NCBI GenBank assembly: GCA_903854235.1
Contig: CAINVV010000227.1
Coordinates: 4,065-68,064, forward strand
From: an uncultured Bacteroidia bacterium
GTDB taxonomy: Bacteria > Bacteroidota > Bacteroidia > Bacteroidales > Prolixibacteraceae
Reading direction: 5' to 3'
Length of the DNA: 64,000 bases
The position numbers and the translations under genes were made by a program. Below the pieces are notes generated by a model, which saw nothing but the letters and a program-made list of their open reading frames with translations, did not search any database and was not told where the DNA came from. Positions 21,828-50,342 of this stretch are shown piece after piece (position 1 is the stretch's first letter; each line of letters starts with the position of its first letter).

Positions 21828-24800
21828 ATGAAAAAAACGGTAGCATTAATCTTCATCTTGTGCATGGTTTTTCAACTGACTATGGCACAAAAGCGGTTGA
21901 TTTCCGGGGTTATCCGGGATAAATCAACCAATGAGACACTTCCGGGAGTTTCAGTTCTTGAGAAAGGAAGCAAGAACGGAATTACGACCAATATGGATGG
22001 CAAGTATGAACTTTCGGTTTCCGCGGGTGCAACCTTGGTAGTCAGTTATATTGGGATGAAACCTATGGAGGTGAAAGTAGGTAACTTATCCACTGTAAAC
22101 ATTTCACTTGAATCCTCAAATGAGGTGATTGATGAAGTGGTAGTTGTTGGTTACGGGCAGCAAAAGAGGGCCAATTTAACAGGAGCTGTTGCGTCTGTTG
22201 ATACTAAAGTACTGGAGGCAAGACCTATCGCCGATGTGGGTCGTGGTCTTCAAGGAACTACCCCTGGACTAAGTGTCGTCATTCCAAGTGGAGAAGTCGG
22301 TTCTGATCCGGTCATGAAGATTCGTGGTCAGCTCGGATCCCTTCAGGGCGGTTCTGCACCTTTGATCTTAATGGATAACGTGGAGATTCCATCCATACAG
22401 ATGCTAAATCCTGATGACATTGAATCCATTTCAGTCTTGAAAGACGCCGCATCAGCTTCCATCTACGGAGCAAAGGCAGCTTTTGGTGTCATCTTGATTA
22501 CTACCAAAAAAGGGGCAAAAACGGAGAGTGTCAATGTAAGTTATTCAGGCAACTATTCGGTTCAGAACATTTCCAAAAAAATGGAAATGGCCAGACTGGA
22601 TGCCCTGGAATATTCTACTCTGGCAATGGAACGGGTAGGAGCCGTTGCAACTGGTGCATTTTGGATGGTGACAAGAGAAGGTTTTGAAAAAGCCAAAGTG
22701 TGGCAGACGAAATACGGTAATTCAGTCAAACCGAATGATCCTATGTTGTATGGTCGCGACTGGTATGTAGATGCCAATGGTCGTAAAATCGGACTTAGGA
22801 CTTATGACCCTTATGATTACATGGTCAAAGAATGGGCACCAACACAGACCCACAATCTATCTGTGAATGGCAAAAGTGGTAAGACAGATTTCAACATTGG
22901 TTTGGGTTATTTAGGTCAGTCAGGGATGGTAAAACCAGCGAAGACGGATGATTTCAAGAGATACAATGGTTCCCTCAGGTTAAGTACGGATGTAGCCGAC
23001 TGGATGAAGATCTATGCAGGTACCATGTATTCAAAGAGGATCAAACGTTATGGATACGCGACCAGCTCAACAACGGCAGATCCATGGTTGTATTTGTATC
23101 GTTGGGGACCAACCTACCCAATGACTACCGAAGATGGTGATCCGATTAGGAGCCCTGCATCTGAACTGGCCCAGGCAAATACTGCTGTCCAGGAGACTAA
23201 TTATACCAGTTTGAACGGCGGATTCATCATCACACCGCTAAAAGATTGGAAGATCAACTTTGATTATACCCATGCCAATCAGGAATATATGAATGACAGG
23301 CCTGGAACTCGCTTTACTGCACGTGACAGCTGGTCAGCTGCGGTTGCAAAAAATGATGCTACGGGGAACAGAATTTACATGGATGATGCGGGCCAAGTAG
23401 TTGCCTCAACTGCAACCAATGCTATGCCTGCCTATCAATTGGTGAATTCAACTTATACAGGCGTTGGTGCAAATCCTGATCATATTTACCGGATTACGCA
23501 GAATGACCAATGGAATACAATCAACCTGAACACAACCTATGAGATGAGTCTCAATGATATTCATAAATTCAGGTTTATGCTTGGAATGAACAGTGTGGCT
23601 TACAATTATGAAAACAATTGGTCTCAGATCACACAATTGGTGGATTATTCAAATCCACAATTCAATTTGGCTACCGGTGTCCAAACGACAGGTGGAAACA
23701 AATACTGGGAATCTCAGCTGGGTTACTTCGGTCGTGTGAATTACAATTTCAAAGACAAGTATCTGTTGGAAGCCAACTTAAGGTATGATGGAACCTCTAA
23801 ATTTCCAACGAGTCTGCAATGGAGATATTTCCCTTCCTTCTCAGGAGGTTGGCGTGTAAACGAAGAATCCTGGATGGACTGGACGAAACCAATACTCAGT
23901 GCTTTGAAAGTCCGTGGATCCTGGGGTACCATTGGAGACCAAACTGTCAGCAACTCGCTGTATGTTCCAACCATGACTGGTTCATTCAACAATTTTATTC
24001 TGGGTGGTGCCAAACTCTATCAATTTGGGACACCGGGAGCCGTTTCCGCGACAGTTACCTGGCAGGATATTACAACGTTGGATTTGGGACTGGATGCCCG
24101 TTTCCTGAAAAGCGAATTGGGTGTTTCATTTGACTGGTTCAGGCGCAGTACGGAGAATATGATTGTTCCGCAAGAAGGTATTCCGGTTACTTACGGTTCA
24201 GGAGCTCCTCAGGGTAACTTCGGTTCTTTGAAAACGGATGGAGTAGAACTTCAGCTGGACTACAACCACCGTTTTAAAAATGGGGTGGGCATCAACATGG
24301 TAGCCACTTTCGCAGATGCAAAAACCATCATCACGAAATATGGGTCAACACAAAGTATAGACTCGTGGTATGTGGGTAAAACGTATGGTGAAATCTGGGG
24401 CTATGAAACAGACAGGTTGTATCAGAAGGAGGACTTTGTTTATGATGCTGCAGGAAAACTGATTACCACTACCTCAAAAGATGGATTTACGGTAAATAAA
24501 TTGAATGATGCTACAGTGGCGACTCAAGGTAAGCTTCAATCAGGGAACTTTGTGTTCGGACCTGGTGATGTTAAATTCAAGGACTTGAATGGCGACGGAG
24601 TGATAAATGCCGGAAACAGACTGCTTAAAAATGCAAGTGGTGCACCAGATTACGGTGACTTGAAAAAGATTGGAAACTCAACGCCACGTTACCAGTACAG
24701 TTTCCGTGTTGGGGCTGATTACAAAGGATTTGATGCCTCTGTATTCATTCAGGGCGTTGGTCAACGCAGTGTATGGGGCGAAGGTTCTACGGTAATTCCA

Positions 24801-25220
24801 GGTTATCAGGCATCCGACGGTGGTATGCCAGAAGCCATTGCCGGAAATTTCTGGAGAGCCGACAGAACGAATGCTTTCTATCCTGCTCCCTACAACCAGG
24901 CGGGAAGTGGTACGACACTGAACATGCAGATTCAATCCAGGTATTTGTTGAACATGGCCTACATGAGAATCAAAAACATTACTGTTGGTTATTCTTTGCC
25001 TGCCAGTGTTTTAAGAAAAATTCAAATCAGCAAGCTTCGTGTATATGTTGCGCTGGAGAATTTCTTCACCTTTGATCATCTTGGAACGCTTCCTGTTGAT
25101 CCTGAGGAAATTGAGGGCTATTCCATGTGGAATACCACCAACTACGATGCAGGACGAACTGGTGTAGGTGTACCAACGTACAAAAGTGCTTCAGTTGGTA
25201 TTCAGTTGAACTTTAAATAA
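21828..25220 (+). CDS. SusC/RagA-family TonB-linked outer-membrane transporter (no STN domain)
   Basis: Signal peptide, CarboxypepD_reg 'ISGVIRDKSTNETLPGVSVLEKGSKNGITTNMDGKYEL', a plug beginning 'VVVVGYGQQKRANLTGAV', 1130 aa in total, and followed by a SusD-like gene. Confidence 0.93.
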   Translation: MKKTVALIFILCMVFQLTMAQKRLISGVIRDKSTNETLPGVSVLEKGSKNGITTNMDGKYELSVSAGATLVVSYIGMKPMEVKVGNLSTVNISLESSNEVIDEVVVVGYGQQKRANLTGAVASVDTKVLEARPIADVGRGLQGTTPGLSVVIPSGEVGSDPVMKIRGQLGSLQGGSAPLILMDNVEIPSIQMLNPDDIESISVLKDAASASIYGAKAAFGVILITTKKGAKTESVNVSYSGNYSVQNISKKMEMARLDALEYSTLAMERVGAVATGAFWMVTREGFEKAKVWQTKYGNSVKPNDPMLYGRDWYVDANGRKIGLRTYDPYDYMVKEWAPTQTHNLSVNGKSGKTDFNIGLGYLGQSGMVKPAKTDDFKRYNGSLRLSTDVADWMKIYAGTMYSKRIKRYGYATSSTTADPWLYLYRWGPTYPMTTEDGDPIRSPASELAQANTAVQETNYTSLNGGFIITPLKDWKINFDYTHANQEYMNDRPGTRFTARDSWSAAVAKNDATGNRIYMDDAGQVVASTATNAMPAYQLVNSTYTGVGANPDHIYRITQNDQWNTINLNTTYEMSLNDIHKFRFMLGMNSVAYNYENNWSQITQLVDYSNPQFNLATGVQTTGGNKYWESQLGYFGRVNYNFKDKYLLEANLRYDGTSKFPTSLQWRYFPSFSGGWRVNEESWMDWTKPILSALKVRGSWGTIGDQTVSNSLYVPTMTGSFNNFILGGAKLYQFGTPGAVSATVTWQDITTLDLGLDARFLKSELGVSFDWFRRSTENMIVPQEGIPVTYGSGAPQGNFGSLKTDGVELQLDYNHRFKNGVGINMVATFADAKTIITKYGSTQSIDSWYVGKTYGEIWGYETDRLYQKEDFVYDAAGKLITTTSKDGFTVNKLNDATVATQGKLQSGNFVFGPGDVKFKDLNGDGVINAGNRLLKNASGAPDYGDLKKIGNSTPRYQYSFRVGADYKGFDASVFIQGVGQRSVWGEGSTVIPGYQASDGGMPEAIAGNFWRADRTNAFYPAPYNQAGSGTTLNMQIQSRYLLNMAYMRIKNITVGYSLPASVLRKIQISKLRVYVALENFFTFDHLGTLPVDPEEIEGYSMWNTTNYDAGRTGVGVPTYKSASVGIQLNFK

Positions 25221-25228
25221 CTAGAACA

Positions 25229-27055
25229 ATGAAAAAATATATATTGAGTTTATCGTTGGTAGTTACGCTTGTTTTGACCAGCTGCAGCGGCTTTCTTGAC
25301 AGGCCTTCCCTGACCACCATGAATGATGGAAACTACTGGACTTCTGAAAATAACATCCGGCTTTTTGCCAACGGATTTTATACGAACTATTTTGTAGGTT
25401 ATAATTCATCCTTTACCTATGATTATGCACCGTTAAACGGATACAATTTTTCCGATGATTTGACTTCAGCTGGAAAACAGGCGAATTTTGAATCTCAGGC
25501 TCCAGACTCCAGGTATTCTACCAGTGAGGCGGCAGCCTGGATGTCTACCTATGCGGGACCGACGTGGGATTTCGCCTGGGTGAGAAAATCCAATTTGTTC
25601 CTGGCAAGGGTAGAGGCTATGAAGGGCAATGCGATCACCACATCCGTTTATCAGCATTGGAGTGCCGTAGCCCGTTTCTTCAGAGGTTATGAGTATTGCC
25701 GTTTGGTAAGTGTCTTTGGAAACGTTCCTTATTTTGACAAAGTCGTAGGGGATTCGGAAATGGATTTGTTATACAAAGACAGAGATGACAGGACAGTCGT
25801 AATGGACAAAGTTTATGATGATTTTGTTTATGTTCTTGACAATATGCGGTTGGTAGATGGCGACGTTCAGTATCTAAACAGGTACATCGCAGCTGGATTT
25901 ATCTCTCGCTTTATGTTGTTTGAAGGTACCTGGCAGAAATATCAACTGAACAACACGGTCAAGGCGCAGAAATATCTTGACCTGGCTGTGAAGGCTGCCA
26001 ATATTGTCATGTCTTCCGGGAGATACTCCTTTACCAGCGATTTTCGTTCCTTGTTTGGATCTGACAACTTATCCTCCAACAAGGAGATGATTATGTACAG
26101 GGTATATGATGCAGCCATTGGTGTGACCCACGCTGTTGCTTCGTATTCCAATTTATACGAAAGTCAGTCGGCTTCTCCCAACTTGAAACTGGCCAAAGCC
26201 TTTATCTGCAGCGACGGGAAACCGTATAAACTGTCTACTGTAGCCAATGCAACACAATTGGATATCAAGAGTATGGTTACCACACGCGACCCTAGATTTG
26301 AAGCCACTTTCTGGGGGGCACCGAAGATCGAGGCAGGAACGCTGTTGTATGCAGATAAATTCATCGACCGTGTTGGTGTAACCTATTATCCCGGCCCTTA
26401 TCCTGCCATGTACGGCTCCAATACCAACACCAACGATGCACCTGTCATGCGATTGGCAGAGGTTGTCCTCAACTGGATTGAGGCCAAGGCAGAATTGGCC
26501 TCCATGGGCGGAACGGCAGTCACGCAGTCAGACATCGATGCCTCTATCAATGCCATCCGTCTGCGTCCTTTGGATGCTACAGCAACCGCGAAAGGGATTA
26601 AGAAGACCGCACCCTTGTCTCTGGCAACACTTCCCAACGATCCTGACCGTGATGCCGATGTTCCTGCCCTTATCTGGGAAATCAGGCGTGAGCGCAGAAT
26701 GGAATTTGTTTTTGAACATACCCGTCTGCTGGATTTGAAACGTTGGAAGAAGATCAGTTACATGAACAATTCGGATCCTGATAACCTGCTTGGGTTGTGG
26801 ATCAATTTCCAGACGGAATATCCGGCTTGGTTGGTGGCTGCCAAAGTCAACAAACTTAGGGTAAAGAAAGAGGATGGCACCATTGTTACCTACACTGGAT
26901 CCAATGCTTCTGACATGGTGGGCTATTACATTCCTGAGAATGTTTCCAACAGGGATCCATTCACTGAAAGAGTCAATCTTGCACCAATTGGCAATACCCA
27001 GATCAGTGAATACCTGGGCAAGGGATACAAATTGACCCAAACTACCGGCTGGTAA
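25229..27055 (+). CDS. SusD/RagB-family outer-membrane lipoprotein
   Basis: Lipobox 'VLTSCSGFLD', helical TPR-like composition, and a position directly after the SusC-like gene. Confidence 0.9.
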   Translation: MKKYILSLSLVVTLVLTSCSGFLDRPSLTTMNDGNYWTSENNIRLFANGFYTNYFVGYNSSFTYDYAPLNGYNFSDDLTSAGKQANFESQAPDSRYSTSEAAAWMSTYAGPTWDFAWVRKSNLFLARVEAMKGNAITTSVYQHWSAVARFFRGYEYCRLVSVFGNVPYFDKVVGDSEMDLLYKDRDDRTVVMDKVYDDFVYVLDNMRLVDGDVQYLNRYIAAGFISRFMLFEGTWQKYQLNNTVKAQKYLDLAVKAANIVMSSGRYSFTSDFRSLFGSDNLSSNKEMIMYRVYDAAIGVTHAVASYSNLYESQSASPNLKLAKAFICSDGKPYKLSTVANATQLDIKSMVTTRDPRFEATFWGAPKIEAGTLLYADKFIDRVGVTYYPGPYPAMYGSNTNTNDAPVMRLAEVVLNWIEAKAELASMGGTAVTQSDIDASINAIRLRPLDATATAKGIKKTAPLSLATLPNDPDRDADVPALIWEIRRERRMEFVFEHTRLLDLKRWKKISYMNNSDPDNLLGLWINFQTEYPAWLVAAKVNKLRVKKEDGTIVTYTGSNASDMVGYYIPENVSNRDPFTERVNLAPIGNTQISEYLGKGYKLTQTTGW

Positions 27056-27074
27056 AAAATGGGTTCTGATCAAC

Positions 27075-27116
27075 AAAAGGGGCTGTACCAACTTGGTGCA
27101 GCCCCTTTTCTGTTTG
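27075..27116. terminator. bidirectional rho-independent terminator between SusD-like and epimerase genes
   Basis: AAAA-GGGGCTGTACC-AACTT-GGTGCAGCCCC-TTTTCTGTTT, with a G-U wobble in the stem. Confidence 0.8.
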
Positions 27117-27131: not shown

Positions 27132-28268
27132 TTATCCTTTTGGCCGAATTCCGATACCTGCCAATTCAGGGAGTAAAATTTTACCCTCGACTACTTTCAT
27201 TCCCTCGAAGACATCGTTGGAAATAAGAAGATTGCCATCCAGATCGGCCCAATCAACAATTGGGGAAAGCTGTGATGCAGCGCTAACAGCACAGGAGGTC
27301 TCCGTCATGCAGCCGATCATGGTCTTCATCTTTAAGCTTCTGGCCATTTCGATGATCTTGTGTGCTTCGCGCATCCCGGTGCATTTCATCAGTTTGCAGT
27401 TGATTCCTGAGTAGACGCCGTGAATTCGGTCCAGATCACCAATTCGTTGCAACGCTTCATCGGCCATGATGGGAAGCGGGCTGTGCTGCGTCAACCAGGC
27501 TGTGTCGTCGAAATTGTGCTTTTCAAAGGGTTGTTCGATAAATACGACGCCCTGTTCCTTGAGCCAGTGGATCTTGTCGAGGGCCTCCTGTCGATCTTTC
27601 CAGCCCTGATTGACATCGACACAAAGTGGAACATTGGTTACAGATCGTACTCCTTTGATCATCTCCTCATCATTGCCCCCACCAATCTTGACTTTTAGTA
27701 TTTTGAAGGCAGAAGCTTCCTTTGTTTTGGTCACTACCTCGTCACTTTTGGCCATCCCAATCGTAAAAGTGGTCAGGGGCGTCTTTTCGGCTGAGTAACC
27801 CCAAATCCGGTACCAGGGTTGATTGAGCAGTTTCCCAACCAGATCGTGAAGAGCGATGTCAACGGAAGCCTTGGCCGCACAATTTCCGGGCATTGCAGCA
27901 TCCACATAGTCCAAAATCTCCTCCATCCTAAACGGATCTTTGAATTGTGACAAATTGAGGGTGGAAAGAAACTTGGTGGCTGTCTGATGTGACTCTCCCA
28001 AATAAGGGGGCATCGAGGCTTCTCCATACCCTGTTACACCTTCCCATTCAAGCTGCGTAAGCATGACTGCAGTCGATGTTCTGGAATTGGAGGCAATGGT
28101 AAAAGTATGTTTAAGCTGCAATTCATAAGGTTTGAAGGAAAACTTCAATCCACTTCCGGTAGGCTGATACCGGGGAAGGACCTTTCCTGCCTTAGTAAAG
28201 GAAGATAGAAAACCTGCGCCGGCGGCCAGAGAGGTTGCTTCCAAAAATGTTCTGCGGTTTGCTTTCAT
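27132..28268 (-). CDS. dipeptide (L-Ala-D/L-Glu-type) epimerase, enolase superfamily, with twin-arginine signal
   Basis: Enolase-superfamily residues 'ILKVKIGG' (KxK), 'LCVDVNQGW', 'VFIEQPF', 'IMADEAL' and 'INCKLMKCTG'. N-terminal 'MKANRRTFLEATSLAAGAGFL' looks like a Tat signal. Confidence 0.85.
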   Translation of the reverse strand: MKANRRTFLEATSLAAGAGFLSSFTKAGKVLPRYQPTGSGLKFSFKPYELQLKHTFTIASNSRTSTAVMLTQLEWEGVTGYGEASMPPYLGESHQTATKFLSTLNLSQFKDPFRMEEILDYVDAAMPGNCAAKASVDIALHDLVGKLLNQPWYRIWGYSAEKTPLTTFTIGMAKSDEVVTKTKEASAFKILKVKIGGGNDEEMIKGVRSVTNVPLCVDVNQGWKDRQEALDKIHWLKEQGVVFIEQPFEKHNFDDTAWLTQHSPLPIMADEALQRIGDLDRIHGVYSGINCKLMKCTGMREAHKIIEMARSLKMKTMIGCMTETSCAVSAASQLSPIVDWADLDGNLLISNDVFEGMKVVEGKILLPELAGIGIRPKG

Positions 28269-35996: not shown

Positions 35997-35997
35997 G

Positions 35998-42739: not shown

Positions 42740-44281
42740 TCAGTGTTTAACGAATTTAACCGGTTTGCTTTCCAAATGCGTTGGACTCAGCGCCGTTACA
42801 ACATATCGGAAACGGGATGGCCTGTATCCTTTTGCTCCATTTAGCAGCAATTTTTGGTAGGAAGTGATGGCAATGATCTTGTTGGGGTGATCGGTATTTT
42901 TACGCTGCAATATTTTATAACGATAAACCACATACAGGCTGTTGTTCTCTTGCCTCTGCCACGACAAAACGATGTTTTTTCCTTCGCGTTGAAGGGTGGC
43001 ATTCCCCGGTTCTGCAGGTATCACAGGATCAATTCTCGGGTTGACAGGAGTTAAGGAAGGAAATTTATAATGCTCATTTAGGAGCTTTTCCCTGATGCCA
43101 AGGGGATTGCTTTTCAGGAACTTGGCACTGAAATACATGCTGCCTTTAATTTCAGTGATGGTTCGGTTTAAACTAAGCTGCCGGTTGATTTCGTCGGAAC
43201 TTCTCCAAGCCGGGTCTTTCGATGCTGGATCGAGCAGATACAAGGCTTGTCCCGTATAAATGTTGCAACCATAACTGTGATCGGCCCACCATTTTACCAG
43301 AATTTTGTAGTCAGCAACCTCTTTCCCAATGTACCAGTAAAGTTGCGGGGTAACGTAGTCGATCCATTTTTCCTGTTGCCATTTGAGGATGTCCGCATAC
43401 AAATCATCGTAATTGGAGACGCCGGCTCTCGTATCAGATCCGTTTGGGTCATTTTTTTTGTTGCGCCATACTCCAAAGGGAGATATGCCGAACTCGACCG
43501 TAGGTCGGATGGCCTTGATGCTGTCGTGCAATTGCTTGATGATAAGATCCACGTTGTTTCGCCGCCAATCCTCCTTTTGCTGGGGACCAAAATTTCCAGC
43601 AAATTTTTTGAAGGACTTATCATCGGGAAAATCAGCTCCGGAGATTTTGTAGGGGTAAAAATAGTCATCGAAATGAATGGCATTGATGTCATAGCGCCTC
43701 ACAAGATCACTGACGACATTGGCAACATGGTTGCGAACAGCAGGAATACCCGGATCAAAATACTTCTTGTTTCCATAGGTAACCATCCACTCGGGATGGG
43801 TATTGACCACATGATTGGGAGCAGCCTTTGTTTTTTCCGTGTTTTGGATGGCCCGGTAAGGGTTGAGCCACACGTGGATATCCAAGCCTCTCTTCCGGCA
43901 CTCTTCAATGGTGAATTGCAGCGGATCGTACCAGGGATCCGGTGCGACACCCTGTTTGCCTGTCAGCCACTCTGACCAGGGTTCAATGGTTGAATAATAA
44001 AGGGCATCTGCATCGGGCCGGATCTGAAAAACAACCGTGTTCAGGTTATAGGCCTTCACCGAATCCAGCAAGGTTATCATTTCGGCTTGCTGTTCGGCTG
44101 TGGTTAAATGGGAACTGGATGGCCAGTCAATGTTCTCGACGGTTGCAATCCATACGGCCCTCATCTCCCGTTTGGGGTATTCCTTGTTTTTGGCTGAAAC
44201 TGTCAATCCAACCATCCATAGAACAATAAATAAGTATTTCAGCTTCTTCACGAGATAGATCTTTAATATATTGTGGTACAA
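42740..44281 (-). CDS. exported GHL10 / UPF0748 glycosyl-hydrolase-like protein (YddW/DigH, YngK family)
   Basis: Signal peptide, then 'EMRAVWIATVENIDWPS' and a TIM-barrel-like pattern ('IHVWLNPYR', 'IHFDDYFYP'). Confidence 0.75.
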   Translation of the reverse strand: MYHNILKIYLVKKLKYLFIVLWMVGLTVSAKNKEYPKREMRAVWIATVENIDWPSSSHLTTAEQQAEMITLLDSVKAYNLNTVVFQIRPDADALYYSTIEPWSEWLTGKQGVAPDPWYDPLQFTIEECRKRGLDIHVWLNPYRAIQNTEKTKAAPNHVVNTHPEWMVTYGNKKYFDPGIPAVRNHVANVVSDLVRRYDINAIHFDDYFYPYKISGADFPDDKSFKKFAGNFGPQQKEDWRRNNVDLIIKQLHDSIKAIRPTVEFGISPFGVWRNKKNDPNGSDTRAGVSNYDDLYADILKWQQEKWIDYVTPQLYWYIGKEVADYKILVKWWADHSYGCNIYTGQALYLLDPASKDPAWRSSDEINRQLSLNRTITEIKGSMYFSAKFLKSNPLGIREKLLNEHYKFPSLTPVNPRIDPVIPAEPGNATLQREGKNIVLSWQRQENNSLYVVYRYKILQRKNTDHPNKIIAITSYQKLLLNGAKGYRPSRFRYVVTALSPTHLESKPVKFVKH

Positions 44282-44383: not shown

Positions 44384-45826
44384 CTATTGATAGCTCACCT
44401 CCATGTGCCAGCTCCACTTATCAAAATAGAGGTTTCCCCCTTTCCACTCCACCTCTCCGCGCTGGAAATCATAAGGCTCACTTCGGAAGAATTTCTTGAC
44501 CGGAGTGAAGGGTTGGCTGATATCATCGTTGACAATCAATCGGTAGGCATCGATACTGGTGATGTAAAAATCACGGATCAATGGGTCTGGACTGTCTTGC
44601 AATCCAAACGATTGATCCAGAGGGATCCAGCCGTAACCCTCAAACCATACTTCGCACCAGTCGTGCAGGTTGACGGCTCCCGGATGGAGCATCCATCCGC
44701 TTTGCCATTTGACGGGAATTCCGGCATACCTGGCGAGGGTCATGAAGAGCAGGGTCTGCATCCCACAGTCACCGTGGTGATTTTCAATCACAAATCCGGG
44801 AATGTCAGACATGATGCTGTACTCCAGCGCACTGGCCCAGGTGACTGAATCGTTGATCCAGCGATATATTTTTCTGACCTTAAGCAGTGGATTAGTCTCG
44901 TCTTGTAAAATCCTCTTGGCGAGAGATTTGATCTTGTGATTGAAAATTATTTGAGGAGGTCTTTCTGCAACATAAACTTGATAGAGGAGATCATAGGTCT
45001 GATAGGGCTTCATCATTTCAGGTGTAAGTCGGAAGGACTGAGCAAAAGTAGTAACCTGAATTTCAGAATGGAAAACGGTAGGAAGATGAGCAGAGGTTGT
45101 CTTCTCGAGGTAAAGAGATCTTTGAAAATCTGACACCGGTGAAATCAGACTTTGAGCAGGTTCGGTTAGAATAAGTTTTACCTCTTGCTGCCTCGGGTGG
45201 TTTTCCCTCGGGAAGGGCATCCAGCAACGAATGGTCTCTCCTGCCGGAACGGCATCGGGTGCCACTGTGATGGTATAAGAGAGTTTCATCCTGACCGAAT
45301 TGACGGGTTGACCGGATTGTTTGGTGTTTTGCACAATTTTCGCCAAATCAGCCACCCGGAATTGGGAGATCAAATCCGGCTCATTGCCCTCTTTTTGAAC
45401 TTTCAGCCTTCGGTACAAACTATCCAGTCTGAAAATATTGCCTATACAGTTTTTGAAATAGTATTTTTTACCCTCAATTGTCAGGAAATCGATTTTATGC
45501 TCCTTTTCAAGCCTTAACATTTCTTTGGTATCAAATCCGGCATTGTACTTCTCCATTTTCTGGATGACATCGCTGTCGGTGAGGGTGAAATCCTTTCTGA
45601 TGCGCGACATTGTTTCAAGCAGGGAATCGAGGCGTATATGGTCGGTCACCGGAATCTTATTGGTGCTCCTGAGCTGGGATGCCTCAAAAGCTGCCTCTGT
45701 GAAATTGCCTGCTTTAACCAGGTTTTCAAGGTGAGAAACACCCTTGTCACCGGAACGAATAGTACATCCGGTCAGACAAACATGAAGAAAAAGTGCCAGC
45801 GTCAAAATTCCAAATATACGGGCCAT
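44384..45826 (-). CDS. transglutaminase-like cysteine-protease-fold lipoprotein
   Basis: Lipobox 'LHVCLTGCT'. Intact Cys-His-Asp core 'HHGDCGMQTLLFMTLARYAGIPVKW', 'NLHDWCEVW' and 'WIPLDQS'. Confidence 0.8.
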   Translation of the reverse strand: MARIFGILTLALFLHVCLTGCTIRSGDKGVSHLENLVKAGNFTEAAFEASQLRSTNKIPVTDHIRLDSLLETMSRIRKDFTLTDSDVIQKMEKYNAGFDTKEMLRLEKEHKIDFLTIEGKKYYFKNCIGNIFRLDSLYRRLKVQKEGNEPDLISQFRVADLAKIVQNTKQSGQPVNSVRMKLSYTITVAPDAVPAGETIRCWMPFPRENHPRQQEVKLILTEPAQSLISPVSDFQRSLYLEKTTSAHLPTVFHSEIQVTTFAQSFRLTPEMMKPYQTYDLLYQVYVAERPPQIIFNHKIKSLAKRILQDETNPLLKVRKIYRWINDSVTWASALEYSIMSDIPGFVIENHHGDCGMQTLLFMTLARYAGIPVKWQSGWMLHPGAVNLHDWCEVWFEGYGWIPLDQSFGLQDSPDPLIRDFYITSIDAYRLIVNDDISQPFTPVKKFFRSEPYDFQRGEVEWKGGNLYFDKWSWHMEVSYQ

Positions 45827-45844: not shown

Positions 45845-48391
45845 TCAGTTAGAATGAAGTTGTCCTTTGCTCTTGTCTGCTGTTGACAGCTCTGTTATCT
45901 TGCAAAAGTGGTAACCTTTTCCGGTGAAAAATTCAAGTAATTCATCGAGATGGTTGTACAATTTATCGGTACGAAGTGGTGAAGTACCAAGATGAATGAG
46001 AAGAAGGGTGCCATTTAATCCATTTTTATCCGAGGATTCAAATTTCTTCAATTTTGTCATTATCTTTTCCGAGCTATTGTAGTTGAGCTGTTCAGGCGTG
46101 GTATAATCCGAGTTGGAACCGATACCGGGTGTGTAGTTGAGGATGGTCAATCCCAATTTGCTTGCCCTGTCAACGATTTCACGGTTGCACCACTCATAGG
46201 GAGGAAGAAAGTAGTTGGCCTCTTTCGTTTGGATCCCAAAAGTCTTCATGGTTTTGTAATTGGCTATCAGGTCATTTGTAAAATCAGCGGAATTCACCAG
46301 GGTTGAATCTCTTTTGATCCAATCGGCATACAGCAGATGCTTGTCTGAATGTGCACCCAGATAGTGACCGTCTGCAATCAGCCTCCTGATCAAATCTGAA
46401 TTTTTGCCATTTCGGTAGAATTCGCCCGTGAAGAAAAAGGAGGCTTTGGCTCCATATTTTTTAAGTGTTTTTTCAATGGTTATACCACCTTCTCCAAATT
46501 CGTGTGCAGAGAAAATCAAGTAAATTTTTTTCTCCTGGCTGTCGAATCTGACGACCGCCCCCTGGCTGTCGAATGATCGTGAGGAGTGACCGGAAATGGT
46601 GTCGGACGCTTCCAGGGAGGAGAGCAGGTAACTCAAACTGGCGGTACCATCCATGGTCGGTTCGTTGGTGGAGTAATCCCCGTTATCGTCGTGATAGACG
46701 GCCCTCCCTCCCTGTAATTCTGCATGGGCATCCGACTTATGAAGCTTGATGCCAAGCAGCGAACCGTAGATCTGTCTGTAAACGGGACCATCTACCAATC
46801 CGCCGTAGGTTGGCTGTTTCATCCAATAGGTGATGGCTGAATGAGGGTCTTTCGGATACTCACCATAAGAAGGCATTCCACAGATCATCGAGGTGCCCCA
46901 AGGATTGCATCCAAATAGCCAGTCAGTAAGAGCGGCTTCCAATTCCTCAAACTGACGGTCTCCTGTAATCAGCCTGTAAAGTCTGGCCTGTGTAGCTGCA
47001 GCGACAACCAGATTGTTGGAGCACCAAATGAAAGGAATACCGATGGGGAAGGGGTCGTTGACCGAAAATTTCTGAAGGGAAGTTAAGCCCTGTCTTAAAT
47101 AGTCCCTGAATTTTTTTGAAAGTAGCGTATCGCCGGACTGAGCCAGTAAGGTATGCCCCAGGTTGACAAAAGGATAATATTGGTAGTGACGGGCGCGATG
47201 AAGTTCCATCCAGGGAGTGACCGGTTCCAGATCTCCCCATTTGGCAGCAGCCAATTGATCCTCGCTGGAATGTGAGATTTGTGCCAGGTTAGCAGCAGCC
47301 AGTTCAAGGTCATCTGCGTAATTCTCCTCTTCATAAAAATAGGGAGAGACTACACAAGCCGTTTGGCAGACTCCTGGATCGGACAAGGCAAATTCCCACG
47401 CTTCGCGGGATTTTCTCTCCAGTTTAACGGAAAGATCCGGGTCGATGTTTTTAAATACTTTTGCGCCCAAAGCAAAGGAGGAGCTGAACTTGGCAGCTAC
47501 TGAGGCGACCCCTGTGGTGCGGTTTCGGTGTTTTCCTGTTCCCTGGGGCTTTCCTGTTACGAAATAGACGGGTCTGAATTTTTTACCCAACCCATAGGAT
47601 ACGGTATCTTGATTGGGAAGCCGGTAGCCCCTGTGATCTCTGTCATCGGCTATCTGGTAATACATTTCATTCCTGGAAGGATTCATTTTCAAAAGCCAAT
47701 CCAGACCCCAGCGGGCTTCATCCAGAATGTCGGGTATTCCGTTCGGACCTGATAGTCCGTTTGCCTGATAATTGTCCTTATAGACAGATGGGTTGCGGAG
47801 ATAGGCGAACAACATTTGGTAGACTGCATTGGCTGAAGTGAGGGTATATTGAAGATAGTCGGAAGCATCGTGCCACCCCCCTGTGACATCTATCCATTTG
47901 CCGCTCTTGGTGGGGTGATCAACAATAATTCCGTCTGCGGTATGACAGGAATCTTTTAGAAACGGATTGAATCCACAACGCTGCTGCCGAAGATAGTTGA
48001 GAACATAGTCTGCCGAACCTCTGTATATGCCGAAGGAGATGGGGAATGGGGGTGAAACTGCGTTACCGGCTTCCAGGTGATATCCTCCCGGTTGTACGAC
48101 AGAAGAAAAATTTAGCCTGAAGGCACTTCTTTGCCCCCATAAAGTGCCATCAGCGGCTTCCGGGACTCCTTTAAAGATGGTTTTGCCCGAAAGATTGTCA
48201 ACCAAAACAAAATTCTTCAACAAAATTCTTTCGTCACTGAGGAAAACCGCTGTTTTTAGCCCTTCCGGGAGATATCCCATTTGATTTACCCTTATTGCAT
48301 CCGCCCCGAAGGCAGGCGAACAAAGGCAAAGAACAGCTATGATGACACCATATATTTTATACATGGAAAGGAGTATTTGTAAGAAAAACAT
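45845..48391 (-). CDS. exported GH9 glycoside hydrolase fused to a C-terminal polysaccharide-deacetylase-like domain
   Basis: GH9 motifs 'VTGGWHDASDYLQY', 'DDRDHRGYR' and 'YHDDNGDYSTNEPTMDGTA'. The C-terminal ~235 aa (about 45848-46558) carry 'GAKASFFFTGEFY', 'GHYLGAHSDKH' and 'YFLPPYEW', which resemble NodB/CE4. An alternative start at 48364 gives 'MYKIYGVIIAVLCLCSPAFGA'. Confidence 0.8.
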   Translation of the reverse strand: MFFLQILLSMYKIYGVIIAVLCLCSPAFGADAIRVNQMGYLPEGLKTAVFLSDERILLKNFVLVDNLSGKTIFKGVPEAADGTLWGQRSAFRLNFSSVVQPGGYHLEAGNAVSPPFPISFGIYRGSADYVLNYLRQQRCGFNPFLKDSCHTADGIIVDHPTKSGKWIDVTGGWHDASDYLQYTLTSANAVYQMLFAYLRNPSVYKDNYQANGLSGPNGIPDILDEARWGLDWLLKMNPSRNEMYYQIADDRDHRGYRLPNQDTVSYGLGKKFRPVYFVTGKPQGTGKHRNRTTGVASVAAKFSSSFALGAKVFKNIDPDLSVKLERKSREAWEFALSDPGVCQTACVVSPYFYEEENYADDLELAAANLAQISHSSEDQLAAAKWGDLEPVTPWMELHRARHYQYYPFVNLGHTLLAQSGDTLLSKKFRDYLRQGLTSLQKFSVNDPFPIGIPFIWCSNNLVVAAATQARLYRLITGDRQFEELEAALTDWLFGCNPWGTSMICGMPSYGEYPKDPHSAITYWMKQPTYGGLVDGPVYRQIYGSLLGIKLHKSDAHAELQGGRAVYHDDNGDYSTNEPTMDGTASLSYLLSSLEASDTISGHSSRSFDSQGAVVRFDSQEKKIYLIFSAHEFGEGGITIEKTLKKYGAKASFFFTGEFYRNGKNSDLIRRLIADGHYLGAHSDKHLLYADWIKRDSTLVNSADFTNDLIANYKTMKTFGIQTKEANYFLPPYEWCNREIVDRASKLGLTILNYTPGIGSNSDYTTPEQLNYNSSEKIMTKLKKFESSDKNGLNGTLLLIHLGTSPLRTDKLYNHLDELLEFFTGKGYHFCKITELSTADKSKGQLHSN

Positions 48392-48408
48392 TCAGCCAAT
48401 CCCATCTT

Positions 48409-48416
48409 CAAAAATA
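48409..48416 (-). promoter_or_regulatory. Bacteroidota-type -7 box (TATTTTTG on the minus strand) in front of the 12-gene array
   Basis: Plus-strand CAAAAATA, 17 nt upstream of ATG 48391. Confidence 0.3.
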
Positions 48417-48442
48417 GCCTAAAAAATGAAAATTACAATATT

Positions 48443-48465
48443 GGTAATACATATTATATGTTACC
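48443..48465. promoter_or_regulatory. near-perfect palindrome GGTA-at-ACATAT-T-ATATGT-TACC (candidate operator)
   Basis: Perfect core 6-1-6 inverted repeat at 48449-48461, flanked by GGTA/TACC. It lies in the divergent GH9-array / murK intergenic region. Confidence 0.4.
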
Positions 48466-48493
48466 TAAAATGTATTAATAAAATATTTATCTT

Positions 48494-48501: not shown

Positions 48502-48668
48502 AAAATTATGTTGAGCGGATGCAATCTTGTTAATTATGCAGTTTTCGGGCAAGAAGAGGTTCAATATTTCCTGACCTTGAATTGTATATATTGAGTTAAA
48601 TTGAATCAGCCCGTTTTGTGACATAGTTGATTGCATTGGAAGTATAAAGATAACTTAAAATTGCCGGT

Positions 48669-49514
48669 GTGATATTAATTGCAGATTCTGGATCCACAAA
48701 ATGCGCCTGGAAATTGGTCTTTCCTTCTGGCCGGTTGGTTTCAATTTACACCTCAGGAGTTAATCCGTTTTTCAGATCGACGGAGTCGATTTACGAAGAG
48801 TTAGCGATTGAACTCCTTCCAAAAATTACAGCTACCGTAGGGGATATCTATTTCTATGGTTCCGGAATCCTCAATGAGGAGAAGGCGGATGTAGTCCGAC
48901 TTGCCCTGCAAAAATTATTTCCTGGTGCCAGGATCGAACTCTTCAGTGACGTTGTCGCTGCTTCCAGATCCCTTTTTGGCAACAGCGCAGGAATTGCCTG
49001 TATTCTTGGAACAGGATCCAATGCTTGTTTGTATGATGGTCAGAAGGTGGTTGGCGGAATATCACCACTTGGATTCATCCTCGGGGATGAGGGCAGTGGT
49101 GCCGTTTTAGGGAAGAAATTGCTGGGAGATTTTTTTAAAGAGGTCATGCCGGAGCCACTTCGTAAAAAATTTGCACAAAAATACCAACTTACCAGAGCTG
49201 AAGTTCTTCAAAGGGTATACAAATCAGAGAAGCCGAACTTCTATCTGGCATCTTTTGCCCCTTTTCTCTCAGAAGAATTTTCCTCAGACTATGTCCAACA
49301 ACTGGTAAAAAGCAGTTTGATCGAATTCTTTGAGCGCAATGTCACCAAAATTTCCGGATACGAATCCCACTCCATCGGCTTTGTGGGATCCATCGCTTTC
49401 CATTTCAAGTCGATTGTAGAAGAAATTTGTGAGCGTTATCGCCTTCCTTGTAAAGCGATTCTTCAGGAACCGATGGAAAATTTAGTGAAATACCACCAGA
49501 ACATTATTAATTAA
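48669..49514 (+). CDS. murK: BadF/BadG/BcrA/BcrD-type ATPase, N-acetylmuramic acid/N-acetylglucosamine kinase-like
   Basis: 'ILIADSGSTKCAW', 'ACILGTGSNA' and 'GFILGDEGSGAVLG'. It lies 9 nt upstream of murQ, as in the Tannerella murTKQ arrangement. GTG start. Confidence 0.7.
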   Translation: MILIADSGSTKCAWKLVFPSGRLVSIYTSGVNPFFRSTESIYEELAIELLPKITATVGDIYFYGSGILNEEKADVVRLALQKLFPGARIELFSDVVAASRSLFGNSAGIACILGTGSNACLYDGQKVVGGISPLGFILGDEGSGAVLGKKLLGDFFKEVMPEPLRKKFAQKYQLTRAEVLQRVYKSEKPNFYLASFAPFLSEEFSSDYVQQLVKSSLIEFFERNVTKISGYESHSIGFVGSIAFHFKSIVEEICERYRLPCKAILQEPMENLVKYHQNIIN

Positions 49515-49523
49515 GCCTGAAAT

Positions 49524-50342
49524 ATGAATACCGAAAGTATTACCGAAAAAGATTCGCTATATCACGATTTGGAAAAGATGTCGGTAAAGGAGTTGCTTCA
49601 TCACATCCACGAAGAGGATAAGAAAATACTGCCAGCTGTAGGGGCAGTGATTCCGAAGATTGAAGAGCTGGTAGAGCAGGTATTTCTGAGGATGAAGAAA
49701 GGTGGGCGACTGTTCTACATGGGAGCCGGTACAAGTGGACGTTTGGGTATTTTGGATGCATCTGAGATTCCTCCAACATTTGGCGTGGGCCACGGACTAG
49801 TTATCGGTCTGATCGCGGGGGGTGATAAGGCCATTCGGAAAGCCGTTGAGGCCGCCGAAGATGACGAGGAGGTTGGATGGAAAGAGCTTGAAAAACAGGA
49901 TATTAACGAACTGGATACGGTGGTTGGTATTGCCGCTTCCGGCAGAACTCCCTACGTAGTTGGTGCCGTTAAAAAAGCGAGGGAAAACAAGATCTTGACG
50001 GCCTGCATTGTAAATAATCCCGGCAGTGTCCTTGCTAGAAATGTGGACATTGCCATTGAAGCGATTGTTGGCCCGGAGTTTGTAACAGGAAGTACGCGCA
50101 TGAAATCAGGCACTTCACAGAAAATTATCCTGAATATGATCACTACTTCGGTCATGATCAAGCTGGGCAGAGTGAAGGGGAATAAAATGGTCAATATGCA
50201 ACTTACCAACCAAAAACTCGTGCACAGGGGAACCCGGATGATTGTGAGTGAACTGGGTTACAGTGAAGACAAGGCCAAGAGACTCCTTTTGTTGCACGGA
50301 TCCGTAAATGAGGTTCTTGAGGCAGCTAGAAATGAAAAATAG
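49524..50342 (+). CDS. murQ: N-acetylmuramic acid 6-phosphate etherase
   Basis: SIS-domain motifs 'YMGAGTSGRLGILDASEIPPTFG', 'GIAASGRTPYVVGA' and 'TGSTRMKSGTSQK'. Confidence 0.92.
   Translation: MNTESITEKDSLYHDLEKMSVKELLHHIHEEDKKILPAVGAVIPKIEELVEQVFLRMKKGGRLFYMGAGTSGRLGILDASEIPPTFGVGHGLVIGLIAGGDKAIRKAVEAAEDDEEVGWKELEKQDINELDTVVGIAASGRTPYVVGAVKKARENKILTACIVNNPGSVLARNVDIAIEAIVGPEFVTGSTRMKSGTSQKIILNMITTSVMIKLGRVKGNKMVNMQLTNQKLVHRGTRMIVSELGYSEDKAKRLLLLHGSVNEVLEAARNEK

Follow-up and report, generated by a model that had tools for sequence, protein, structure and literature searches.

A studied counterpart of the locus reported here is the ampG/peptidoglycan (PGN) salvage operon of Tannerella forsythia, in which Tanf_08345-08385 form a single transcript, ampG is required for growth on PGN, and AmpG is a demonstrated inner-membrane carrier of GlcNAc-(anh)MurNAc disaccharides (PMC5388701, PMC7670621). 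In a 64-kb stretch of DNA from a Prolixibacteraceae-like Bacteroidota genome (the window), genes for a giant secreted protein, a GT2 protein, a DUF4922 protein, a SpoIID-like protein and AmpG stand in the same order as in that operon (PMC5388701). The core of the array to which they belong is thus known biology, a likeness overlooked by the sequence-only reading of this DNA, which had given the array a peptidoglycan role (PMC5388701, PMC7670621). What looks new is the tie between such salvage genes and a SusC/SusD pair (SusCD); in the literature searched, we found no published description of a peptidoglycan locus with SusCD. From sequence comparisons, we consider it reasonably probable that the locus is a Sus-like peptidoglycan utilisation system built around a T. 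forsythia-type salvage operon.

ORF listing together with Pfam and NCBIfam profile searches confirmed the layout first proposed: 12 co-directional minus-strand genes (27132-48391), a plus-strand SusC/SusD pair (21828-27055) that converges on them, and murK-murQ (48669-50342, plus strand) divergent from them (Table 1). Domain assignments bore out that nearly all identifiable products target peptidoglycan, and signal sequences predict an extracytoplasmic location for most enzymes. Four products that had gone unnamed are now a NagX-like acetyltransferase, a GH9-CE4 fusion, the GT2/DUF4922 pair and a transglutaminase-like protein, and two likely members lie outside the bounds originally drawn (19605-21476 and 15909-16637). 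A 204-nt gap had been called the sole exception to tight spacing in the array; it is real, but gaps of 83 nt (epimerase/NlpC) and ~100 nt (GHL10/transglutaminase) accompany it. As also claimed, profile searches of the window found no anmK, nagA/nagB, ldcA or murT, and we identified no surface-exposed endo-acting enzyme within it.

Table 1 Features of the locus in window coordinates; array genes are listed against their direction of transcription, starting next to SusD.
Feature	Position	Strand	Basis or remark
GntR/FCD (NanR-like) transcription factor	15909-16637	+	Pfam GntR+FCD; candidate regulator
Secreted metallophosphoesterase + PQQ-like beta-propeller protein (MetPQQ)	19605-21476	-	Pfam; divergent from susC
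Candidate operator box TGTAATACAACATACAA	21709-21725	+	Upstream of susC
SusC-type TonB-dependent outer-membrane transporter, lineage A	21828-25220	+	TIGR04056; Pfam CarbopepD_reg_2, Plug, barrel
SusD-type lipoprotein, lineage A	25229-27055	+	PF07980; lipoprotein signal ...LTSC
Bidirectional intrinsic terminator hairpin	27072-27114	.	AAAAGGGGCTG...CAGCCCCTTTT; common to susD and array
L-Ala-D/L-Glu-type dipeptide epimerase, Tat-type signal, periplasmic	27132-28268	-	MR_MLE domains (Pfam); PDB 3IJI
YkfC-like gamma-D-Glu-L-diamino-acid endopeptidase, lipoprotein	28352-29527	-	Pfam NLPC_P60 + SH3_16; signal ...CVGC
NagZ-type GH3 fused to beta-lactamase/PBP4B-AmpH-like domain, secreted	29732-32728	-	Pfam; signal peptide
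AmpG-like MFS permease, 622 aa, insert ~190 aa	32751-34619	-	TIGR00901 173 bits, under 350 cutoff
SpoIID/LytB-domain protein	34659-36059	-	TIGR02669 170.6 bits vs cutoff 83
DUF4922/GDPGP1_C (GDP-sugar phosphorylase-like) cytoplasmic protein	35998-36978	-	DUF4922 1.7e-58 (Pfam)
GT2 glycosyltransferase-fold cytoplasmic protein	36968-38437	-	Pfam Glycos_transf_2; 240-aa N-terminal part without assignment
Giant secreted protein, 1046 aa	38465-41605	-	Split Amidase_3-like core, inserted Golvesin_C, FN3, C-terminal domain
NagX-like polytopic membrane protein, putative glucosamine N-acetyltransferase	41614-42735	-	NF046061 1.6e-40
GHL10 peptidoglycan glycan-strand hydrolase, Cwp19/DigH-like, secreted	42740-44281	-	PF02638 1.3e-79
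Transglutaminase-core lipoprotein, cysteine-peptidase fold	44384-45826	-	PF01841 2e-18
GH9 (with CelD_N) fused to CE4 deacetylase domain, secreted	45845-48391	-	Pfam; first array gene
Imperfect palindrome TTGGTAATACATATTATATGTTACC, GTAATAC core	48441-48466	.	Divergent array/murK promoter region
MurK-type MurNAc (or GlcNAc) kinase	48669-49514	+	PDB 1ZXO 1e-75
MurQ, MurNAc-6-phosphate etherase	49524-50342	+	NF003915 360 bits vs cutoff 168

For the AmpG-like permease, 80 related loci were collected. The SpoIID-like protein probably starts at 35996; a signal peptide is absent from it in 14 of 15 diverse loci (the exception, L086, is a mis-parsed ORF), and neither the DUF4922 protein, whose GDPGP1_C assignment comes from precomputed gene calls, nor the GT2 protein has one. 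The giant gene occupies the place of T. forsythia Tanf_08345 (‘xanthan lyase’). Its most likely start is the ATG at 41605, which yields the signal peptide, rather than 42007 as first proposed. The amidase fold suggested for its product fared unevenly: H182, E205, H525 and E608 are invariant across 53 sequences, but the Pfam match to Amidase_3 (20.1 bits) falls under the 27-bit cutoff, beside matches to Golvesin_C (2e-24) and fn3, and the AF2 model is of low confidence across the Amidase_3-like region. Amidase_3 is matched by 23 of 32 diverse homologues (best 5.9e-10), and we regard the protein as a candidate MurNAc-L-Ala amidase.

Among the other array enzymes, the epimerase (Tat-type N-terminal signal MKANRRTFLEATSLAAGAG) matches PDB 3IJI at 1.8e-144, an entry titled ‘muconate cycloisomerase’ that we take to be the B. 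thetaiotaomicron dipeptide epimerase. The YkfC-like protein matches PDB 3PVQ/3NPF (~1e-56) as well as 3H41, and the GHL10 protein matches the Cwp19 structure 5OQ2 (8.8e-106). The NagZ signature reported earlier for the GH3 protein lies at residues 205-218 (KHFPGHGDTQTDSH), and the motifs SVTK659 and HSG944 are present; NCBIfam PBP4B and NagZ matches are both under cutoff. The GH9-CE4 fusion matches PDB 3X17 (9e-32), has an altered motif 1 and a retained HSDKH in its CE4 domain, and is encoded next to AmpG in L030, L075 and L086. The NagX-like protein scores 139 bits against NF046061, under the 480 cutoff, and its gene accompanies AmpG arrays in L008-L017, L030, L075 and L086. No PDB relative was found for the transglutaminase-like lipoprotein, whose gene recurs in the shuffled array of L075. 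The MurK-like protein matches PDB 8OQW (1.6e-69) and 8OW9 (5e-69) (titled ‘Putative novel MurNAc kinase’), and MurQ scores 293 bits against TIGR00274, narrowly under the 302 cutoff.

In the pathway we propose, soluble peptidoglycan fragments would be captured at the surface by the SusD lipoprotein and imported through SusC with TonB energy. Once in the periplasm, the fragments would lose their stem peptides to the giant Amidase_3-like protein, and their glycan would be cut down by GHL10 (Cwp19/DigH-like), the GH3 domain of NagZ type and GH9-CE4. Peptide trimming may fall to the transglutaminase-like lipoprotein and the beta-lactamase-fold domain, the YkfC-like lipoprotein may cleave gamma-D-Glu-diamino-acid bonds, and the Tat-exported epimerase may convert L-Ala-D-Glu to L-Ala-L-Glu. 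GlcNAc-(anh)MurNAc disaccharides would then cross the inner membrane via AmpG and be processed in the cytoplasm by the conserved GT2, DUF4922 and SpoIID-like trio, with MurK and MurQ presumably converting MurNAc to GlcNAc-6-P and D-lactate; the NagX-like protein may re-acetylate glucosamine. The same import and dismantling might instead be anabolic, salvaging MurNAc and peptides to build the cell’s own wall, on the model of T. forsythia, a MurNAc auxotroph. We think this unlikely: the array core does match the T. forsythia salvage operon, MurQ-derived GlcNAc-6-P can supply wall synthesis, and cytoplasmic genes of GT2 and nucleotide-sugar-phosphorylase-like type point to nucleotide-sugar chemistry, but the epimerase and YkfC-like steps would yield ordinary L-amino-acid dipeptides, which suggests catabolism.

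SusC scores 771.8 bits against TIGR04056 (cutoff 368) and by Pfam lacks an N-terminal STN signalling domain. SusD is unusually conserved, with at least 74% identity among the 120 match clusters listed and 74-83% for orthologues in the compared loci; a structure search found no close solved structure and no characterised relative. Judged by strand and by the shared hairpin (-28.1 kcal/mol, z = -4.7), SusCD in the window is a transcription unit apart from the array, which weighs against the functional link drawn earlier between the two.

Seen in one Bacteroidota genome alone, a SusCD pair beside such genes could be there by chance; the comparative data show that it is not. In five of eight gene arrangements, the SusD orthologue lies directly among peptidoglycan genes (NamZ, GHL10, YkfC-like, epimerase, Amidase_3), some of these being fully co-directional. 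L091 is co-directional throughout (beta-lactamase, NamZ, URO-D, NamZ, SusC, SusD, MetPQQ, GHL10, YkfC, epimerase); L096 runs YkfC, epimerase, MetPQQ, SusC, SusD, AMIN-Amidase_3, GntR; L089 runs GHL10, PD40, T9SS Amidase_3, T9SS DUF4623, SusC, SusD, GntR; and L026/L037 run AmpG, NamZ-type ORF (a by-eye assignment based on the N terminus and the L091 context), URO-D-like ORF, SusC, SusD, MetPQQ. L009/L088 are arranged identically to the window, and SusCD pairs of two further lineages come after the epimerase gene, in L008/L010 and in L012/L013/L015/L016/L075. A SusC/D neighbour accompanies 9 of 14 arrays with periplasmic hydrolases (three SusCD lineages) versus 5 of 66 minimal SpoIID-AmpG loci, counts that overstate independence because the compared loci are phylogenetically related. 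SusCD was not seen within 10 kb in most T. forsythia/Bacteroides-type loci; L014 has YkfC-like and epimerase genes and no SusC within 7.5 kb; in L005, L092 and L094 the SusCD orthologue has lpxK and a second SusCD unit for neighbours and lacks any peptidoglycan gene within 10 kb. Since related genomes keep peptidoglycan genes and SusCD together, cell wall is probably imported and digested like a dietary polysaccharide. This retained adjacency, which the sequence-only reading had proposed as a check, supports its tie of SusCD to murein catabolism, as does a cis-element that the promoter regions of SusC, murK/array and YkfC-like genes have in common across genomes.

In the window, that element lies ahead of susC and follows two TAnnTTTG -7-like boxes (21607 and 21666). 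The 17-mer has a single match there, even allowing up to 3 mismatches, and the box recurs ahead of SusC genes in L088 (twice), L075 and L096. Its 15-base family form, GTAWTAYANNNTACA, has 17 matches in 1.56 Mb against 2.05 ± 1.5 expected, all in intergenic promoter regions of relevant genes and including SusC genes of two lineages; matches outside the pattern-defining set come from L008, L010, L013, L015, L016, L017, L086 and L096. The strict box occurs in the window only upstream of susC. Between the array and murK, where -7-like boxes lie at 48409 (-) and 48494 (+), the divergent promoter region holds only a related sequence, the palindrome, which is kin to the family box and not a strict match. 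Relatives also carry a box ahead of the YkfC-like gene; in the window we could not recognise it. The GntR regulator, with a best NCBIfam match to the NanR subfamily (1.2e-40, under cutoff), is 63% identical to the GntR whose gene comes immediately after that of the SusD orthologue in L089, and GntR/FCD genes also follow SusD in L093, L095 and L096 (presence of a family member, orthology aside). By gene neighbourhood, the NanR-like regulator travels with SusCD across loci, and we infer that it probably controls the susC and array/murK promoters via GTAWTAC-containing boxes.

These data also bear on whether the array and murKQ simply turn over and recycle the cell’s own wall (T. forsythia/E. coli type), with SusCD carrying unrelated cargo and brought alongside by high SusCD density and frequent rearrangement. 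Recycling fits the convergent, separately terminated SusCD of the window, the three non-orthologous SusCD lineages that hold the site in relatives, the lpxK-adjacent orthologues and the 61 of 66 minimal AmpG loci without any SusC nearby. We nevertheless find this combination improbable, given orthologous SusCD lying co-directionally amid NamZ, GHL10, YkfC-like, epimerase and Amidase_3 genes (L091, L096, L089) and one box before SusC of two lineages, YkfC-like and murK promoters; an outer-membrane importer and a T9SS-secreted amidase (L089) would, moreover, be superfluous. Quite improbable, too, is another amino-sugar polymer or envelope component as target (chitin/chitosan, poly-GlcNAc, teichoic-acid-linked), or RagAB-like uptake of peptidoglycan-derived peptides without glycan strands or muropeptides: GH9+CE4, NagX-like and the L086 GH20 are not peptidoglycan-specific, the associated phosphoesterase could cleave phosphodiester-linked wall polymers and SusCD orthologues are flanked by YkfC-like, epimerase, S9 peptidase and D-Ser-dehydratase-like genes, but the recurrent neighbours are MurNAc-specific NamZ, MurK and MurQ plus Amidase_3 and Cwp19-like GHL10, and profile searches found no GH18, GH19, GH46 or GH75 chitinase/chitosanase in the window.

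MetPQQ is probably a member of the peptidoglycan-utilisation system. Its gene adjoins SusCD orthologues in L088, L026, L037, L091 and L096, and P0450 is a natural fusion of MetPQQ with the giant amidase-like protein.

The 12-gene array that SusC/SusD (SusCD) faces is very probably a peptidoglycan (PG)-processing system. The layout proposed by the sequence-only reading, a SusCD pair converging on the array with murK-murQ divergent from it, was borne out by an ORF listing and by Pfam and NCBIfam scans. In transcription order, the array encodes a GH9 protein fused to a CE4 domain, a transglutaminase-core lipoprotein, GHL10, a NagX-like membrane protein, a giant secreted 1046-aa Golvesin_C/FN3 protein, GT2, DUF4922, a SpoIID-domain protein, an AmpG-like permease, GH3 fused to a beta-lactamase-fold domain (GH3-bla), a YkfC-like NlpC/P60 lipoprotein and a dipeptide epimerase. 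The gaps between these genes had been described as short apart from one of 204 nt; that gap is present, but further gaps of 83 nt and about 100 nt exist. The start of the giant ORF also needed correction and lies most likely at 41605. As had been claimed, anmK, nagA/B, ldcA and murT were not found within the window, and Pfam and NCBIfam scans of the window returned neither NamZ (GH171) nor MurT. Two candidate recycling genes were set aside: a putative NagA is aminofutalosine-deaminase-like by family match, and a HAD gene considered as MupP had generic beta-phosphoglucomutase-family matches only. An Rfam scan of the window gave one tRNA as its sole match.

Features of the window discussed in the text, in order of position
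Feature	Position (nt)	Strand	Evidence or remark
Histidine utilisation genes and S41 peptidase gene	253-6989
Class A penicillin-binding protein gene	7082-9451
ECF sigma, FecR, CarbopepD_reg_2 cluster	9560-12789
GntR/FCD gene	15909-16637		candidate regulator
HAD gene	18792-19463		considered as MupP
MetPQQ (metallophosphoesterase + PQQ-like beta-propeller)	19605-21476
Strict box (candidate operator motif)	21709-21725		upstream of susC
SusC	21828-25220	+	TIGR04056, 772 bits
SusD	25229-27055	+	PF07980; 8 nt from susC
12-gene array	27132-48391	-	convergent with SusCD; ORF listing, Pfam, NCBIfam
Dipeptide epimerase	27132-28268	-	last gene of array
AmpG-like permease	32751-34619	-	array gene 9
SpoIID-like, DUF4922 and GT2 genes	34659-38437	-	array genes 8 to 6
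GH9-CE4 fusion	45845-48391	-	first gene of array
Imperfect palindrome	48441-48466		array/murK region
MurK-like kinase	48669-49514	+	PDB 8OQW, 1.6e-69; divergent from the array's first gene
MurQ	49524-50342	+	NF003915, 360 bits vs cutoff 168
M23 ShyC/MepM-like DD-endopeptidase gene	53378-54739
Aminofutalosine-deaminase-like gene	57926-59119		rejected as NagA

Several array products have close relatives of known type. GHL10 is very near Clostridioides difficile Cwp19 (8.8e-106), a peptidoglycan lytic transglycosylase; the YkfC-like protein matches PDB 3PVQ at 1e-56, the epimerase matches 3IJI/3IJL/3IJQ at 1.8e-144 while scoring under the cutoff in NCBIfam equivalog models, and the GH3 domain contains the NagZ signature KHFPGHGDTQTDSH. 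The MurK similarity spans residues 1-279 (1ZXO, 1e-75; 8OW9, 5e-69), and the same protein matches K1058-type GlcNAc kinases 8OQK/8OW7 at about 1e-59, so that scores do not separate a MurNAc from a GlcNAc preference. The CE4 domain of the GH9 fusion retains HSDKH and has its first motif, TFDD, replaced by SAHEFGEG; it may be a divergent deacetylase or have another activity. The 622-aa AmpG-like permease reaches 173 bits with TIGR00901, below the cutoff of 350, in two stretches, and a conserved insert of ~190 aa separates its MFS halves in 80 of 80 related loci.

The core of this locus is a known PG-salvage module, as the gene order it shares with Tannerella forsythia indicates. There, Tanf_08345-08365 are annotated as 'xanthan lyase', gtf, gtf, lytB and ampG, and the wider Tanf_08345-08385 cluster, which adds namZ1/ybbC, murT, murK and murQ, is one transcript controlled by GppX (PMC5388701). 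In T. forsythia, GlcNAc-(anh)MurNAc enters through AmpG, whose gene the bacterium needs to grow on peptidoglycan (PMC7670621). Comparing window Pfam domains and gene order, rather than sequences, with the Figure 2 legend of PMC5388701, we found the giant Golvesin_C protein, GT2, DUF4922, SpoIID/LytB-like protein and AmpG in the order of the T. forsythia operon. By this shared order with a characterised gene, the AmpG-like permease probably works like AmpG. The 'xanthan lyase' label derives from a Golvesin_C-like module (PDB 6F2P). In both systems murK adjoins murQ; the pair is divergent in the window and downstream in T. forsythia. Unlike the T. forsythia operon, the window lacks NamZ, MurT and a GppX-type hybrid two-component gene, and it adds seven periplasmic or membrane genes (GH9-CE4, transglutaminase-like, GHL10, NagX-like, GH3-bla, YkfC-like and epimerase) as well as the SusCD pair, the metallophosphoesterase and a GntR regulator. 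By gene content, the SusCD link and the extra genes would be what is new relative to the T. forsythia module.

To examine the array in relatives, we scanned the AmpG alignment against one genome per species, which gave 80 loci (L numbers below denote compared relative loci), and mapped the window proteins by tblastn. Identical SusD occurs on several metagenome contigs, and the relatives are annotated as Prolixibacteraceae or Marinilabiliales. Loci L008-L017, whose AmpG is 80-83% identical, retain GHL10, NagX, the giant protein, GT2, DUF4922, SpoIID, AmpG, GH3-bla, YkfC and the epimerase; in L075, a distant Prolixibacteraceae locus (AmpG 53%), all parts are present in shuffled order. GH9-CE4, GHL10 and NagX surround AmpG in other orders in L030 and in L086, from Marinilabilia salmonicolor JCM 21150, with NamZ, an SSF transporter and GH20 as additional neighbours; NamZ and SSF transporters are present in L030, L086 and L091. 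Because membership persists while gene order varies, the twelve array genes appear to work together. The cultured relative Aquipluma nitroreducens (AP018694.1) has only a mini-cluster of a GNAT acetyltransferase, SpoIID-like protein and AmpG with no SusCD or hydrolases nearby, and could act as a natural minimal comparison strain.

We next consider SusCD itself. Three non-orthologous SusCD lineages fill the site adjoining the epimerase gene. Lineage A, the type of the window, occupies it convergently in the window, L009 and L088; lineage B does so co-directionally in L008 and L010; and lineage C, a unit of SusC, SusD, a 284-aa protein and DUF4251, is found co-directionally in L013, L015 and L016 but convergently in L012. 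In L075, a SusC fragment shares ~52% identity with lineage C across its N-terminus. The window SusD is unusually conserved (120 hit clusters among the matches listed, all at least 74% identical), and a search for solved structures gave no close one, the best PDB match having E about 1e-6. Tracing lineage-A SusD orthologues (74-83% identical) into other genomes gave eight arrangements.

Gene arrangements around lineage-A SusCD
Arrangement	Locus	Genes	Remark
1	the window	the window's own layout
2	L026/L037	AmpG, NamZ-type ORF, URO-D-like ORF, SusCD, MetPQQ
3	L091	beta-lactamase, NamZ, URO-D, NamZ, SusCD, MetPQQ, GHL10, YkfC, epimerase	all co-directional
4	L089/L090	GHL10, PD40, T9SS-secreted Amidase_3, T9SS DUF4623, SusCD, GntR
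5	L005, L092, L094	lpxK, SusCD-A, SusCD-C unit	no PG genes nearby
6	L093	D-Ser-dehydratase-like gene, SusCD, GntR
7	L095	propeller fragment, SusCD, GntR
8	L096	YkfC, epimerase, MetPQQ, SusCD, AMIN-Amidase_3, GntR	co-directional

PG-specific genes directly adjoin SusCD in five of these eight (1-4 and 8). Likewise, a SusC/D neighbour was found for 9 of 14 AmpG arrays with periplasmic hydrolases, two of the five exceptions ending too early for judgement, as against 5 of 66 minimal SpoIID-AmpG loci; the loci are kin, and these counts overstate independence. The adjacency expected from the window is thus kept in related genomes, and the variety of arrangements indicates that SusCD and PG genes have become associated repeatedly and independently. 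In the loci of arrangement 5, lineage-A SusCD lies directly upstream of a lineage-C unit (SusC, SusD, a 283-aa protein and DUF4251), beside dus/lpxK and ribosomal protein genes, so that two array-associated lineages are themselves neighbours. A ~344-aa URO-D/MtaA-like gene stands between or beside NamZ-type genes, upstream of SusCD, in arrangements 2 and 3. MetPQQ travels with lineage-A SusCD, and its secreted product may, speculatively, remove phosphodiester-linked wall polymers; one natural 1444-aa protein (P0450) fuses MetPQQ to the giant amidase-like protein, residues 1-614 matching at 7e-90.

A shared cis-element points in the same direction. The core GTAWTAC is 29-fold enriched upstream of lineage-A SusC genes and has seven sites in the window, two of them in the susC and array/murK promoter regions. 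A longer pattern, GTAWTAYANNNTACA, defined without matches in L008-L017, L086 and L096, has 17 matches in 1.56 Mb of non-redundant sequence compared with 2.05 +/- 1.5 in block shuffles. All 17 fall in one of three kinds of place: upstream of SusC (lineage A, and the SusC of L075 and of L086), in the intergenic gap that precedes the YkfC-like gene (L008, L010, L013 and L015-L017), or in the divergent murK/array region (L030 and L085). The box of the relatives is ATTGGTATTATATCTTACA. The window has a single strict box, upstream of susC, and a related imperfect palindrome in its array/murK region; a search of the window for the relatives' boxes gave no second strict site and none recognisable upstream of the YkfC-like gene, and we therefore keep the claim of co-regulation within the window weak. 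The Bacteroidetes-type -7 box has the consensus TAnnTTTG. Such boxes occur in the susC and divergent promoter regions and are absent from the internal gaps of the array, which fits one long array transcript, and a strong bidirectional terminator serves both SusD and the array. As candidate regulator linked to SusCD we propose the window GntR/FCD protein, whose best family match is NanR: a GntR/FCD gene directly follows SusD in L089, L093, L095 and L096, and the L089 protein is 63% identical to it.

Together, comparative genomics and the shared motif support PG utilisation and the proposed tie between SusCD and a murein-catabolic gene set. We lean towards SusCD importing PG-derived material as part of the same system as the array. 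We give chitin or chitosan a low rating as the target, since the neighbours that recur are specific to MurNAc.

Predicted protein locations suggest how such a PG pathway would run. By inspection of N-termini, SusD, the YkfC-like protein and the transglutaminase-like protein are lipoproteins; GH9-CE4, GHL10, the giant protein and GH3-bla, the sole NagZ-type enzyme in the window, carry signal peptides; and GT2, DUF4922, the SpoIID-like protein, MurK and MurQ have no signal. The epimerase N-terminus is Tat-type (MKANRRTFLE...), implying that L-Ala-D/L-Glu epimerisation takes place in the periplasm, in contrast to YcjG and YkfB, which are cytoplasmic; the PDB construct of the epimerase homologue 3IJI starts at query residue 41. 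Among 15 diverse loci inspected, 14 encode a SpoIID-like protein that likewise lacks a signal, as do 11 of 11 homologues each of DUF4922 and GT2; the SpoIID-like, DUF4922/GDPGP1_C and GT2 proteins, which also occur in L008-L087, are thus a conserved and predictedly cytoplasmic trio beside AmpG. On these locations, the most likely flow would begin with import via SusCD, continue in the periplasm, where peptides would be stripped off and glycan and peptide trimmed, pass through AmpG, which would bring disaccharides in, and end with cytoplasmic processing followed by MurK and MurQ.

The giant protein is a reasonable candidate for the missing MurNAc-L-Ala amidase, since 23 of 32 diverse family members match Amidase_3 (best 5.9e-10) and four residues (H182, E205, H525 and E608) are invariant in 53 sequences at 35-46% identity, their Zn-ligand/catalytic assignment being by motif alone. 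The family is large (1186 clusters at E <= 1e-30). The window protein itself scores 20.1 bits against PF01520, below the gathering score of 27 and covering profile positions 69-173 alone; its LENAGA.V.LPRERD motif aligns with a true Amidase_3 protein, hhalign covering one 19-residue motif only. An AlphaFold2 model built from a 24-sequence alignment had a mean pLDDT of 60.6, with the putative amidase core below 50, and Foldseek with this model returned FN3 domains and the xanthan-lyase C-terminal module and no amidase. Family profiles against PDB sequences gave significant matches to FN3 and a CBM-like module only, the best amidase being 7RAG at E = 0.051. The T. forsythia PGN-salvage literature consulted here calls the MurNAc-L-Ala amidase 'so far unidentified', assigns no function to Tanf_08345/08350/08355, and names inner-membrane transporters only and no outer-membrane importer.

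The system resembles a polysaccharide utilisation locus (PUL) joined to the Bacteroidota PGN-salvage operon, having both SusCD and linked enzymes. As in Sus-type PULs, SusCD adjoins CAZymes (GH3, GH9, CE4 and GHL10) acting on one polymer, here within 22 kb together with PG peptidases, a linkage that recurs in relatives; other PUL-like features are trimming in the periplasm, a permease of the inner membrane and a candidate regulator linked to the locus. The set departs from usual PULs in its proposed target, a glycan crosslinked by peptides, and in including peptidases, a candidate amidase and an epimerase; its candidate regulator is of the GntR/FCD type and not a hybrid two-component or ECF/anti-sigma system. 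In the window SusCD converges on the enzymes; the two are co-oriented in L091, L096, L010 and L013, and the L089 SusC is adjoined by genes for T9SS-secreted Amidase_3 and DUF4623 proteins. PG-active GH families are under-represented in PULs, yet present in several predicted ones (Lapebie et al. 2019, PMC6499787). Full-text literature searches gave no description of a SusCD-linked PG locus; their coverage was incomplete, and one may have been described elsewhere.

Sialic acid systems offer a second comparison. NanO/NanU mediate SusCD-like sialic acid uptake in T. forsythia and Bacteroides fragilis, and Escherichia coli NanR binds GGTATA repeats. The window would share with them a SusCD-type importer whose substrate is an N-acetyl amino sugar of acidic character; it also has a regulator best matching NanR, and the GGTAWTA-containing boxes of the loci resemble NanR hexamers; unlike them, it has no nan catabolic genes, its neighbours are MurNAc/PG enzymes, and its regulator scores under the NanR cutoff. 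Classical recycling comprises AmpG-NagZ-AmpD-LdcA-YcjG in E. coli, and rescue in Bacillus subtilis uses ykfABCD and murQRP-amiE-nagZ-namZ. AmpG, NagZ, an amidase, L-Ala-D/L-Glu epimerase, YkfC and MurQ families are common to these and the window, but the window NagZ, epimerase, YkfC-like and amidase-like proteins bear export signals, which would place dismantling in the periplasm, and GT2, DUF4922 and the signal-less SpoIID-like protein would take the cytoplasmic place of NagZ and AmpD.

PG is one of the largest bacterial necromass pools, and its fragments are potent immune signals; to our knowledge, the route by which PG crosses the outer membrane of Bacteroidota is not known. If the PG interpretation is true, the bacterial cell wall would join the list of PUL substrates, and genes of the locus would serve as a set of markers of how necromass is turned over in sediments, digesters and guts; the locus would also supply candidates for an outer-membrane importer, the missing MurNAc-L-Ala amidase (the Tanf_08345 position), and a regulator with its operator. 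A broader proposal, which we regard as tentative and rather doubtful as a whole, is that Marinilabiliales possess a dedicated, regulon-controlled pathway for eating other bacteria's walls: conserved SusCD importers would take up PG fragments, a split Amidase_3 not recognised before (the 'unidentified amidase' of the T. forsythia pathway) would strip them in the periplasm, and, as a new route in the cytoplasm, signal-less SpoIID-like, GT2 and GDP-sugar-phosphorylase-like proteins would replace NagZ in splitting imported GlcNAc-MurNAc. M. salmonicolor JCM 21150 is cultured and has a similar locus, making these hypotheses directly testable.

Other genes of the window lie further out. The class A penicillin-binding protein and M23 DD-endopeptidase genes, in the distant flanks of the region, are probably ordinary wall-growth genes. 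Genes for an ECF sigma factor, its neighbour FecR (an anti-sigma factor) and a CarbopepD_reg_2 protein of 498 aa form a small cluster without a full SusC alongside; this could represent either a remnant or an atypical set for signalling across the envelope. Near the start of the window, histidine utilisation genes (urocanase, amidohydrolase and formiminotransferase-cyclodeaminase) are split by an S41 peptidase gene; the amidohydrolase gene, with generic Pfam amidohydrolase matches only, is a possible hutI.
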